DNA of 24,516 nt. Source: Myxococcales bacterium (GTDB taxonomy: Bacteria; Myxococcota_A; UBA9042). Made by a program: the position numbers and the translations under genes. Below are positions 7,992-12,240 of the stretch, piece after piece. Within the stretch, counting starts at the first letter, position 1. Each line of letters starts with the position of its first letter. A model generated the notes under the pieces. The model saw only the letters and a list, made by a program, of their open reading frames with translations. It was not told the origin of the DNA and searched no databases. The DNA lies in assembly GCA_037441385.1 (NCBI GenBank), contig JBBISH010000097.1:1-24516 (forward strand), read 5' to 3'.

Positions 7992-8828
7992 CTACTGCTT
8001 GAGCTTTTCCGCCTGTTCCACGCCAGCCGCACAGCGAAAGCCAAAGTGATGGAAGGGCTCGTTGTCGGGGTGGTGCGGTCGCCGCCACACGGCGGTGGCG
8101 TACTTGGCCGGCCAGTACCAACTGCCGCCGCGGACCAGTTTCTCGGGGTGGCCTGGGCACTTGTCGGCGCCGCCGCAGGGGCCCTTGGGGTCCACGCCGT
8201 CGCAATCCTTGCCGCACTTGACGTAGCTGGGGCTATACCAGTCGCTGACCCACTCCCAAGAATTGCCTGACATATCATAGAGTCCATACACGCCCGGAGC
8301 GCGAAGGCCCACTTCCATCACGCGGCCCTTTTCAGGTTGCGAGTGGAGCTTCTTGACGCCGCAGCTCCGGCCGCTTTCGTCCATGATGATGGCGCGTTTG
8401 CAGGTGACTGGGTCGTTGCCCCAGGGGAACAGCGCGCCGTCGGTGCCGCGGGCGGCCTTTTCCCACTCCGCCTCAGTCGGCAGGCGTTTGCCCTGGGCTT
8501 TGCAGTACGCGACCGCGTCGAACCAGTTGACGCCGGTGATGGCCTGCTTGGGCCGCGAGAAGTCGCTGTATTTCGGGCCTGCGTGCGGGCACTTGCCTTT
8601 TTTCTCACACGCTTTGTACTCGGCGACCGTGACCTCGTACAGGTCCATGAAGAACGTCTGAACCCAAATGGTTGCCTTGGGTTGCGCGTTCTTGGGCTCG
8701 CCGTCCGTGCCACGGATGAACGGGCCACCCGGCACACAGGCCATGCGGGCCGGCACTCGCGCGCAGGGCTGGGCGGCCGGGACGCTGGCGGCGGCGGTGG
8801 CGGCCAAGGCCAAGACCAAAAAACTCAT
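7992..8828 (-). CDS. Exported formylglycine-generating-enzyme (FGE/SUMF1/PvdO) family domain protein
   Basis: Signal peptide; VPGGPFIRG, MDLYEVT, VNWFDAVAYC, RLPTEAEWEKAARG, FPWG, GLYDMSGNSWEWVSD, RGGSW, FGFRCA. Confidence 0.9.
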   Translation of the reverse strand: MSFLVLALAATAAASVPAAQPCARVPARMACVPGGPFIRGTDGEPKNAQPKATIWVQTFFMDLYEVTVAEYKACEKKGKCPHAGPKYSDFSRPKQAITGVNWFDAVAYCKAQGKRLPTEAEWEKAARGTDGALFPWGNDPVTCKRAIIMDESGRSCGVKKLHSQPEKGRVMEVGLRAPGVYGLYDMSGNSWEWVSDWYSPSYVKCGKDCDGVDPKGPCGGADKCPGHPEKLVRGGSWYWPAKYATAVWRRPHHPDNEPFHHFGFRCAAGVEQAEKLKQ

Positions 8829-9897: not shown

Positions 9898-10845
9898 CTA
9901 CCAGCGCAATCCGGGGCGGCGATTGGTCACCACCACTTCGGGAACATCGCCGCGGCGGTCGGCTTTGCTGTTGACCTGGCGTGCCGCGTAAATGGTATGG
10001 ATATTCCACTGTTGGTACAGTTCGCGGGTAAAAGCGCAGTCGCTGTTCGACAGCACCCAGCGCACGCCCATCGCGTCCAGCTCGACCAGGACCTCGTTCA
10101 GCTCGCGCTGGGCGCGGGCCGAGAACCCGCCGCCGCTGTAGGCGTTGAACGAACTGGTGGCGCTGACCGGCTGGTAGGGCGGGTCCAGGTAGACAAAGTC
10201 CAGCCCGTGCTCGGCGGCCAGGCGCGGCCAGGCGCGGAAGTCGGTCTGCAGCAGCGTCGCGCTCTGCAGGGCCGCAGAGGCCGCCGCGATCCGCTCGCTT
10301 TGGGCGATGTTCGGCTGGGCATAGCGGCCGTGCGGTGCGTTGAAGTGTCCCTTGCTGTTCTCGCGCCAAAGCCCATTGAAACAGGTGCGATTCAAGAAAA
10401 GCATCCGCGCGGCCCGCTCGACGTTGGTCATCGGGGTTTCGGCCGGGTGGCGGCTGCGCATCCAGTAGAAGTAGGCCGCCCGCTCGTCGGCGTCGCCCGC
10501 CAGGTATTCCGCCTCGTAGGTGCGAAGTTGAGCGATCAGTGCCTCGGCGTGGTCGCGGACGCAGCGGTGGGTGTTGTAGACGTCGGTCGACAGGTCGGTC
10601 AGCAGGGCCGACGCCAGCCGCCCCTCGCCAGCGAGATGGAAGAACAGCGCGCCGCCCCCCAGGAAAGCCTCGCCGTAACGCAACGGCCCGCTGGGCAGGT
10701 AGGGCTCGATCTGCGGAATGAGGCGTGCCTTGCCGCCAGCCCACTTCATGAACGGCGCGGGTGCCCGGTCGGATCGCGTTGCGGCGTTGTCAAGAGAAAG
10801 CGCTGGATCGCGGACTTGGTTGCGGGTGACGGCGGCCGATTGCAT
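9898..10845 (-). CDS. dam: Dam/DpnM-family (D12 class) N6-adenine DNA methyltransferase, predicted GATC-specific, orphan
   Basis: PFMKWAGGK, EAFLGGGA (motif I), LNRTCFNGLWRENSKGHFNAPHGRY (target recognition region), DFVYLDPPY (motif IV), LSNS, EVVVTN. Start codon uncertain. Confidence 0.92.
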   Translation of the reverse strand: MQSAAVTRNQVRDPALSLDNAATRSDRAPAPFMKWAGGKARLIPQIEPYLPSGPLRYGEAFLGGGALFFHLAGEGRLASALLTDLSTDVYNTHRCVRDHAEALIAQLRTYEAEYLAGDADERAAYFYWMRSRHPAETPMTNVERAARMLFLNRTCFNGLWRENSKGHFNAPHGRYAQPNIAQSERIAAASAALQSATLLQTDFRAWPRLAAEHGLDFVYLDPPYQPVSATSSFNAYSGGGFSARAQRELNEVLVELDAMGVRWVLSNSDCAFTRELYQQWNIHTIYAARQVNSKADRRGDVPEVVVTNRRPGLRW

Positions 10846-10881
10846 GCGAGGTACTCCGGTCGGTGTTTCCGTCGGGAGTCT

Positions 10882-11058
10882 GATCTCGATGGATCCTTTG
10901 TCGAATTTTTCGCACGGACCGTGCCTCGGCCGGGATCCGCACGCTCTGCATCGACGATCGCGAATTGCGATCGAAATCGGAGGGTTGGATCTGGGGGATC
11001 GCTACCAAGATCGGCCGGATCGCCAACTCTGTCCACAGGTCTGGCAGATCGCCGGATC
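10882..11058. promoter_or_regulatory. Dense GATC cluster (11 sites) in the dam/ahpC divergent intergenic region
   Basis: GATC at 10882, 10892, 10934, 10956, 10969, 10988, 10997, 11009, 11018, 11047, 11055 (hand count). The cluster is directly visible; its function is inferred. Confidence 0.75.
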
Positions 11059-11352
11059 TGTAAGGCTATGGTTATGTGGAGGTATTTTGAGTGCGCCAGG
11101 ATTCACGCCAACGTCTTGGCGTCGAACTGGGCCGTGGAAGGCGAACTGCAACAACCTCAAGAGGTTGACCGGGCAGCCCTTGCGCTGCGCTCGCCGCACA
11201 CCTAATTGATGCGCGCCACCAGCGGTCCTGGGCAGTTCGCCCGGTCGCACAACGGTGGCGCCGCTGCCCGCATCCAAATCAGGAGCGGCGCGCTGCCGCC
11301 CAGTTGGTGTTGCCACTTCCCGCGACGCTGTCGCCGCCAGCCCAGGAGAGTC

Positions 11353-11952
11353 ATGAGCGTTCTCGTCACCAAGCCCGCCCCCGATTTCAACGCCGAAGCC
11401 GTTTTTGCCGATGGCAGCTTTGGCAAGGTGAGCCTCAGCCAGTTCAAGGGCCAGAAGTACGTGGTGGTGTTCTTCTACCCCCTCGACTTCACCTTCGTTT
11501 GCCCCACCGAGATCATCGCCTTTGATCACCGCATCAAGGAGTTCCAAGATCGCGGCGTCGAGGTGCTGGGCGTCTCGGTCGACAGCAAGTTCAGCCACTG
11601 GGCCTGGCGCAACACCAAGGTCAAGGAAGGCGGCATTGGCGAAGTCGGCTACACGCTGGTCTCGGACATCACCAAGTCGATCGCCCGCGACTACGACGTG
11701 CTCATCAACGACTCGGTCGCCCTGCGCGCCTCGTTCCTCATCGACAAGAACGGCGTGGTGCAGCATCAGGTCGTCAACAACCTGCCCCTGGGCCGCAACA
11801 TCGACGAGATGCTGCGCATGATCGACGCCCTGCAGTTCACCGAAGAGCACGGCGAGGTCTGCCCGGCCGGCTGGGAGAAGGGCAAAGCCTCAATGAAGGG
11901 CAGCAGCGACGGCGTGGCGGAGTACCTGGCCAAGAACGCCAAGAAGCTGTAG
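11353..11952 (+). CDS. ahpC: 2-Cys peroxiredoxin (AhpC/Prx1)
   Basis: FFYPLDFTFVCPTE, SVDSKFSH, GRNIDE, GEVCPAGW; AGGAG SD before ATG 11353. Confidence 0.96.
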   Translation: MSVLVTKPAPDFNAEAVFADGSFGKVSLSQFKGQKYVVVFFYPLDFTFVCPTEIIAFDHRIKEFQDRGVEVLGVSVDSKFSHWAWRNTKVKEGGIGEVGYTLVSDITKSIARDYDVLINDSVALRASFLIDKNGVVQHQVVNNLPLGRNIDEMLRMIDALQFTEEHGEVCPAGWEKGKASMKGSSDGVAEYLAKNAKKL

Positions 11953-12028: not shown

Positions 12029-12135
12029 CGGGGCGGCTGAGAGGTCGCACGATCCTTCTTTGCCGGAGCCGGAGCCAAGGGGCCCCCACGTGCCCGAAGG
12101 GATGGGTGAGTCCAGCGGACTCGGCCAAGTGGGGA

Positions 12136-12171
12136 CCGGAGCCGGAACCCGAACCCGAACTCGAACCCGAG
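12136..12171. repeat. Degenerate hexamer tandem repeat (cccgaa-type) x6
   Basis: ccggag ccggaa cccgaa cccgaa ctcgaa cccgag. Confidence 0.7.
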
Positions 12172-12240
12172 CCAGTGCCTTCTGGTCGGGCTGCTGGTAA
12201 GGTTGGCGGGCGGCGCGGACCGCAGGCAGGGCAGGTGGCG

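Follow-up and report, generated by a model that had tools for sequence, protein, structure and literature searches.

The biology of Dam is known almost wholly from Gammaproteobacteria; there the readers of the methyl mark are SeqA and MutH. The mobile elements IS10 (pIN) and Tn5 (transposase promoter) have a single GATC in a core promoter element and no upstream array, and in Caulobacter the methyltransferase gene ccrM is driven by CtrA. Promoter methylation is described in PMC12707154 as controlling the methyltransferase genes of CfrBI, AhdI and LlaDII. PMC10925313 assigns the GANTC in the ccrM promoter a minor influence on ccrM expression; and SeqA prefers GATC sites that share one DNA face (PMC2691817, PMC5145175). 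A search of the full-text literature, which leaves subscription journals mostly outside and is no proof of absence, returned no description of a GATC array before a dam gene and no methylome of the clade considered here. We examined a window of 24,516 nucleotides (the whole stretch of DNA analysed; contig JBBISH010000097.1 of the Myxococcales bacterium assembly GCA_037441385.1), in which a row of GATC sites lies directly upstream of dam, the gene of an orphan Dam/DpnM-type DNA methyltransferase, and may serve this gene as a sensor of GATC methylation.

GATC sites upstream of dam

Eleven GATC sites lie within the 177 bp at 10882-11058 upstream of dam (Table 1), and two more (10772 and 10806) fall within the 5' end of the dam open reading frame (ORF); the rest of this ORF has three (10288, 10534, 10708), and the neighbouring ahpC gene has five (11511, 11524, 11548, 11679, 11820). 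These numbers had been given in a first-pass annotation of the window made from the sequence alone, and every coordinate was found again. The same annotation had proposed that GATC density be compared across the genome, and on that comparison the array was unique; similar density was not common in other intergenic DNA. The window is contig C97 of an assembly of 6,626,521 bp in 221 contigs (66.9% G+C, 90.9% complete), which contains 35,681 GATC, or one per 186 bp; the ratio of observed to expected sites under a maximal-order Markov model was 1.02, so the word is neither favoured nor avoided across the genome.

The array is the densest non-microsatellite GATC cluster of the 6.6-Mb assembly. Among all 177-bp windows only C24:35098-35292, with 14 GATC, stood above it, and this is a (GATCAG)n microsatellite; the high-scoring windows on contigs C207 and C104 were also microsatellites. 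The next non-microsatellite cluster (C100:16178, 9-10 sites) lies inside an ORF, as do the other windows with at least 7 sites. When the comparison was restricted to the ~0.99 Mb masked as non-coding (one GATC per 213 bp), the array held 11 sites and the next non-microsatellite windows 6-7, these being, by inspection, coding-like or part of an 11-bp tandem repeat. The array has no tandem structure; its only repeated element is a degenerate 15-nt unit, GATC-N5-GATCGC, in three copies. Upstream of the three other D12 methyltransferase genes of the genome there are 3-4 GATC each in 700 bp and no cluster, and the upstream region of dnaA (~800 bp) has about 5.

Table 1. Features of the dam region, in window coordinates
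Feature	Position	Strand	Basis or remark
dam, N6-adenine DNA methyltransferase of Dam/DpnM type, orphan, 315 amino acids (aa)	9898..10845	-	Pfam, PDB, invariant residues
Two GATC in the N-terminal extension of dam (10772, 10806)	10772..10809	-	GATC listing, motif comparison
Predicted leader stem-loop	10853..10879	-	3' arm contains Shine-Dalgarno GGAG (10854-10857)
Promoter-like core of dam	10877..10910	-	conserved architecture across the family
-10-like CAGACT	10877-10882	-	promoter-like core
GATC overlapping the -10 edge	10882-10885	-	promoter-like core
GATC in the 17-nt spacer	10892-10895	-	promoter-like core
-35-like TTCGAC	10900-10905	-	promoter-like core
A/T tract	10904-10910	-	promoter-like core
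Core of the GATC array	10934..11021	.	7 sites: 10934, 10956, 10969, 10988, 10997, 11009, 11018
DnaA-box-like 9-mer CTGTCCACA (TGTGGAYAG on the dam strand)	11029..11037	+	only one in the intergenic region
Distal GATC pair (11047, 11055)	11047..11058	.	private to this genome
ahpC, 2-Cys peroxiredoxin, divergent neighbour	11353..11952	+	Pfam AhpC-TSA 2e-38

Several repeats were seen in passing. Intergenic (GATCAG)n and (GATCCT)n microsatellites occur in the assembly (G000) at C24:35199-35292, C207:5188-5233, C104:15790-15825, C23:39138-39183 and C100:23164-23203; each unit makes one Dam site, and some of these microsatellites adjoin (GGGCTT)n. Upstream of a 625-aa ORF, at C11:46995-47060, there are ~4 tandem copies of an 11-bp unit, each of which includes one GATC. 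On contig C179 a ~130-bp repeat (1-130 and 2470-2600) flanks dnaA with its upstream region and recurs inverted at ~8260-8390, close to where the contig ends; possibly this is a mobile or structured element of small size. The place held here by the distal GATC pair is taken in relatives by an unrelated variable inverted repeat: at 11040-11060, and at the same place in the loci L002, L003 and L007, beside the TGTGGAYAG box, the arms of the repeat vary yet stay complementary (GTGACG/CGTCAC, TGACA/TGTCA; here CAGATC/GATCTG).

Conservation and helical phasing of the sites

Thirty loci from relatives were oriented, 21 from the family and 9 at class level, and 9 further family loci were added later for a family total of 30 (in this genome collection the order is the same as the family). 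Within 700 bp upstream of the KWxGGK motif, 15 of the 21 family loci had a 177-bp window with at least 5 GATC, and none of the 9 class-level loci did. Enrichment was assessed in a fixed 330-bp upstream window, with the remainder of the same locus giving the background GATC density; 14 of the 21 family loci were enriched at p<0.05 and 12 at p<0.01, and the 9 further loci (5 at p<0.05, none at p<0.01) brought the family to 19/30 and 12/30, respectively. None of the 9 class-level loci was enriched in this window, the lowest p being 0.10. Summed over the 21 family loci, 133 GATC were observed versus 39.4 expected. Palindromes of the same composition were not enriched in these loci (TCGA 1.29x, CATG 1.14x, TGCA 1.0x, AGCT 0.72x), and a comparable fold change was reached only by rare A/T-rich words.

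Whether orthologous dam genes keep upstream GATC clusters despite sequence divergence had been put forward as a test in the first-pass annotation, and they do so, the intervening sequence having diverged. The five closest genomes, whose Dam proteins are 63-90% identical, were aligned with MAFFT: six of the eleven sites (10892, 10956, 10969, 10988, 10997, 11018) are GATC in 5/5 genomes with diverged spacers between them; 10882 and 11009 are GATC in 3/5; and 10934, 11047 and 11055 are private to this genome, the relatives having private sites of their own. Invariant columns made up 27/44 of the GATC columns versus 54/259 of the others. Conserved positions, together with lineage-specific sites, indicate that both the position and the density of the tetranucleotide are maintained, and the aligned loci show selection on the GATC tetranucleotide itself. 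A separate observation concerns genus g9 (loci L019 and L129-L133), in which an operator-like inverted repeat, CTTGACGC-GATC ... GAC-GATC-GTCAAG, surrounds two GATC sites ~215-260 bp upstream of KWxGGK.

The distances between sites are restricted as well. Core spacings in this genome are 22, 13, 19, 9, 12 and 9 bp. Among the 83 adjacent spacings of at most 30 bp in the family arrays, 43 are 8-13 bp and 26 are 19-23 bp, with a single one of 14-18 bp (the remainder being 3 of 4-7 bp and 10 of 24-30 bp), versus genome-wide shares of 25%, 18% and 18% for the 8-13, 19-23 and 14-18 bp classes (n=5,634). The same distribution was obtained with 14 divergent lineages, that is, with the near-duplicates L002, L003, L004, L007, L009 and L014 and the empty locus L012 left out: 26, 19 and 1 of 56 spacings fell in these three classes, 2 in 4-7 bp and 8 in 24-30 bp. 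Of the 16 loci having at least 5 sites, 8 supported a 10.5-bp phase (Rayleigh test, permutation p<0.05). The spacing classes and the 10.5-bp phase together indicate that the sites tend toward one face of the helix; this helical phasing is a feature beyond those of the first-pass annotation.

A scan of genome contigs yielded distant Dam homologues (at most 49% identity) and none from close relatives, and 77 of 80 (35-49% identity), from cyanobacteria, Bacteroidales, Myxococcales metagenome-assembled genomes (MAGs), archaea and others, served as the control set. Both the protein repertoire and the nearest named Dam homologues would suit Myxococcota, yet homologues from cyanobacteria have equal scores. 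Upstream of these genes 120 GATC were counted versus 98 expected, and 6/77 loci were significant at p<0.01 and 3/77 at p<1e-3, as compared with 0-2 and 0-1 loci, respectively, for five control placements of the window. At the stricter level the three loci were those of a Verrucomicrobiae MAG, with 8 sites in ~110 bp, of a Desulfofundulus mobile element, with 7, and of a Bacteroidales DpnII restriction-modification operon, with 5; the 8-9 sites of a Sericytochromatia locus stand in GATC-rich DNA. None of these distant arrays is phased like those of the family. The distant clusters are few and independent, which suggests that the design is rare and has evolved more than once. For reference, the clusters stand at L063:2226-2340 (Verrucomicrobiae MAG), L076:2269-2345 (Sericytochromatia MAG) and L089:2294-2410 (Desulfofundulus mobile element), and the Verrucomicrobiae Dam gene is followed by that of a DUF6996/DUF6997/DUF7226 protein.

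The methyltransferase and the region before its start codon

The Dam protein matched Pfam PF02086 (D12 class) at E 1.2e-49 over profile positions 1-251 of 253, and among proteins of solved structure it came nearest to the GATC enzymes DpnM (2dpm, E 3e-52) and EcoDam (2g1p, E 1e-33). Residues K34, L159, R161, P171 and Y175 align to EcoDam K9, L122, R124, P134 and Y138, which we take, from the EcoDam structure papers, to be its GATC-contact residues, and they are invariant in 28 orthologues. The first-pass annotation had read four of these (the equivalents of K9, L122, R124 and P134) as retained, and that observation extends to all 28. The catalytic DPPY (D221, P222, P223, Y224) is also invariant in the 28 sequences, as are F61 and G63 of the S-adenosylmethionine-binding FxGxG, with G64 and G65 nearly so. 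By homology the enzyme is of the Dam/DpnM type with GATC-type recognition, and it presumably methylates GATC in the organism itself.

No DpnII-family restriction enzyme was found in this one genome, whose completeness of only 90.9% means that the absence of a restriction partner is not proven. Housekeeping genes surround dam in the window (methylcrotonyl-CoA carboxylase subunits, HMG-CoA lyase, FGE-sulfatase, DUF7790, AhpC, cytochrome c, MPG glycosylase, GreA, TsaE), those next to dam being DUF7790, FGE-sulfatase and AhpC; this neighbourhood and the lack of a detected partner agree with the orphan status that dam had been given in the first pass. An orthologue of dam is present in 31/37 genomes of the order and in 24/24 of the high-quality ones, which marks it as a vertically inherited core gene and not a mobile one. 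Only dam and ahpC recurred in a search for conserved neighbours around the locus, so there is no co-located candidate for a reader of methylation. At 12106-12190 the cytochrome c ORF opens with a stretch, PEPEPEPELEPEP, encoded by a hexanucleotide repeat similar to the intergenic microsatellites, for which reason its actual start could be further downstream.

Upstream of dam, a block is conserved family-wide in a fixed order: an A/T tract, a -35-like (T/C)T(C/G)GAC, a GATC 3-4 nt further on, and a -10-like NA(C/G)A(C/A)T at 17 nt, followed by a GC-rich inverted repeat that ends in GGAG or GAGG and then by the start codon. A GATC falls within this promoter-like block, at most 62 nt upstream of the start codon, in 14/17 loci. 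Two other assignments were tried and dropped. A sigma-54 promoter (GG-N10-GC), judged by eye, suits L004, L013 and L015 and does not suit this genome; and the A/T tract was rejected as a -10 element since no conserved -35 lies upstream of it.

When the leaders were folded as single sequences, a hairpin with the Shine-Dalgarno sequence in its 3' arm was obtained for 16/17 of them, with z <= -2 in 12/17, and the leader inverted repeat could add a layer of translational control on dam. RNAalifold on a MAFFT alignment of the 17 leaders gave no pairs and no consensus structure, and Rfam had no match in 10700-11400 at E up to 1. Since the 5' arm of the hairpin starts 1-3 nt past the -10-like hexamer, transcription from the predicted promoter may include no more than part of it. 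The single terminator-like hairpin found by a strict scan (10868-10893, + strand) is the antisense of the dam leader. Across the leaders L002-L020 and that of the window, the inner stem varies by lineage yet remains complementary, e.g., CCTCGGCC/GGCCGAGG and CCTCGGT/ACCGAGG.

The N-terminal extension of Dam (10750-10845, - strand), described in the first pass as poorly conserved, is not simply so, for it has a short conserved motif, (R/Q)D(P/R)xhxLD. The GATC at 10806 is formed by the first Asp codon of this motif, GAT, and the C that follows; it is GAT-C in 5/5 genomes, while GAT makes up 31% of the Asp codons in the genes of the window and GAC is preferred in the genome. The ATG at 10845 is supported as the start codon by the promoter and leader architecture predicted upstream of it and by this conserved N-terminal motif.

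Proposed autoregulation of dam, alternatives and described systems

We give about an even chance to the reading in which the array and the GATC sites of the dam promoter act in cis as a sensor of GATC methylation, through which dam would regulate itself. After passage of the replication fork, or with Dam scarce, the sites would be hemimethylated or unmethylated; with Dam sufficient, they would be fully methylated. The promoter would read this state and dam output would be corrected, most likely by negative feedback, because that sign prevails in the systems where promoter methylation is known to control a methyltransferase gene (CfrBI, AhdI, LlaDII). Reading could be direct, by N6-methyladenine in the promoter spacer and at the -10 edge; or it could occur upstream, where the phasing points to one of two readers, an oligomeric methylation-sensitive protein bound along one face of the DNA or a methylation-dependent change of DNA curvature. 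That phased GATC sites curve DNA according to their methylation is an idea from older work. As the array is the sole one in the genome, a dedicated circuit is likelier than a global system like that of SeqA.

Several results weigh against this self-sensing of dam. A reader was not found: SeqA (PF03925) is in 0/37 genomes of the order and 0/24 of the high-quality ones, and MutH, YccV and GcrA were each missing from the one genome searched, which is 90.9% complete. The dam promoter is predicted from conservation only, a strict sigma-70 consensus scan of 10700-11400 having returned no promoter, with the promoter-like element of dam matching the consensus at 8/12. Enrichment was not significant in 11/30 family loci, and two of a single genus, L012 and L134, have zero GATC in the 330-bp window, so a dense array is not indispensable. 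Only 3/77 of the distant homologues reach p<1e-3. The flanks of some sites are conserved (GAWWYS-GATC-G, GGC-GATC, GATC-CAACC), a pattern that is also compatible with a sequence-specific factor; and the relatives are not independent, so that the p-values and counts overstate the case.

Such flanks around several sites are what would be expected of an operator array that acts independently of methylation, with a sequence-specific regulator, or DnaA at TGTGGAYAG, binding motifs that happen to contain GATC. The inverted repeat of genus g9 (GACGATCGTC / CTTGAC...GTCAAG) and the conservation of the DnaA-box-like 9-mer in five genomes fit this explanation as well. We regard it as rather unlikely, however, for most sites share the tetranucleotide alone, with flanks that differ between lineages; lineage-specific gains sustain the density; the 9-mer is conserved in L001, L002, L003, L006 and L007 only and is missing outside that one subgroup; and it would take a coincidence for such an operator to stand at the gene of a GATC enzyme and, with other flanks, at unrelated Dam homologues too. 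The DnaA-box-like site could otherwise suggest a replication origin or another replication-control site, the number and density of GATC resembling those given for E. coli oriC (11 GATC and DnaA boxes) in PMC5145175. A single box, a lowest 30-mer G+C of 37%, and the location of dnaA on another contig with its own ~800-bp upstream region speak against an origin, and no switch of GC skew was seen at dam in the long contigs of two relatives, G018:C14 and G046:C2, where the skew is weak and gives little power (G003:C1, with only 14 kb beyond dam, was uninformative); we find an origin here barely credible. A functionless by-product, i.e., a decayed microsatellite or a local mutational bias, is suggested by the (GATCAG)n and (GATCCT)n repeats in other intergenic regions of this genome. 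It too is very improbable, given that the array lacks tandem structure, that site positions are conserved across genomes with Dam only 63-90% identical, the GATC columns showing the opposite of neutral divergence, and that the sites are helically phased.

The neighbour ahpC enters two further explanations. The array might mainly control this divergent gene and thereby a methylation-dependent peroxide defence, and of the 21 family loci 15 have ahpC divergent from dam, 2 have it downstream and 4 lack it. The array, however, abuts the dam promoter, and between it and the ahpC start there are ~295 bp with no GATC; enrichment or clusters persist where ahpC lies downstream (L013, L014, L128) or is absent (L016, L018, L019). 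The array thus goes with dam, and control of ahpC is improbable. Of the reading offered in the first pass, the GATC-type orphan enzyme, the unique cluster and the clusters at orthologues stand, and the gating of ahpC, which it had suggested by analogy with agn43, is not supported. The other explanation is a bistable, heritable ON/OFF switch in which Dam would have to contend with a DNA-binding protein for the phased sites, in the way known of OxyR and Lrp at agn43, opvAB and pap; since the controlled gene would be dam, the switch would set whole-genome methylation by positive feedback. The neighbour ahpC is a classic OxyR target, and the conserved box TGTGGATAG includes ATAG. The phasing of GATC by whole helical turns also recalls the OxyR half-sites and GATCs of opvAB as set out in PMC4856963. 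We nevertheless hold a switch to be unlikely: no operator of the OxyR or Lrp type was recognised, without use of an operator model, the sites are far more numerous than the 2-4 of known switches, there is no sign of undermethylation, and a population-wide OFF state would be costly for a core gene present in 24/24 high-quality genomes. Apart from these alternatives, a block at 11195-11215 upstream of ahpC, CACACCTAATTGATG, is conserved in the three closest genomes and is a candidate operator or promoter element of ahpC.

If the proposed autoregulation of dam is extended, one arrives at a self-referential circuit free of SeqA, in which a reader protein, or curvature, would read the phased row of GATC and set or switch the sole GATC methyltransferase, so that methylation of the whole genome would be controlled, and if bistable inherited, from this locus. 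This is speculative, and we consider it unlikely. The clade has high G+C and keeps an orphan Dam as a core gene, with neither SeqA (0/37 genomes) nor MutH (0/1) found; the one outstanding GATC feature of the genome, lying before dam, would be a testable entry to the role of an orphan Dam beyond the enterobacterial paradigm and to how a cell gauges and stabilises its own methylation level. A reader protein, if it exists, would be the functional counterpart of SeqA in a family unrelated to it.

Among described systems, the predicted dam promoter resembles those of IS10 pIN and Tn5 in that GATC stands at the -10 or in the spacer, so that promoter activity would be tied to the hemimethylation that follows replication. 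With Caulobacter ccrM it shares an orphan, conserved methyltransferase whose own motif lies in its promoter region; CcrM differs in enzyme class and motif and has only few sites. The E. coli clusters bound by SeqA (11 sites at oriC, 6 at the dnaA promoter) are likewise dense GATC before a key cell-cycle gene and on one face of the DNA, according to PMC2691817 and PMC5145175; here, in contrast, SeqA is in none of 37 genomes of the order, and the sole cluster of the genome is at dam, not at oriC or dnaA. The Dam/OxyR and Dam/Lrp switches (agn43, opvAB, pap) likewise have, upstream of a promoter, GATC sites that keep to helical turns (PMC4856963). In those switches, however, the 2-4 GATC fall within defined sites for OxyR or Lrp, and surface structures are what is controlled, whereas no such operator was identified here and the target would be the methyltransferase gene itself. 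As in CfrBI, AhdI and LlaDII (PMC12707154), the recognition site of the enzyme lies in its own (here predicted) promoter, and methylation would report that enzyme is sufficient; those systems have one or few sites and a restriction partner, whereas this locus has 11-13 sites, phased and mostly upstream of the core promoter, before a vertically inherited orphan gene that belongs to the core of the order. The principle of a methyltransferase that senses its own mark at its own promoter is therefore already known. From the sequence comparisons made here, what would set this case apart is the lack of a detectable SeqA combined with an orphan core dam, the 11-13 sites, their helical phasing, and their conservation across the order.

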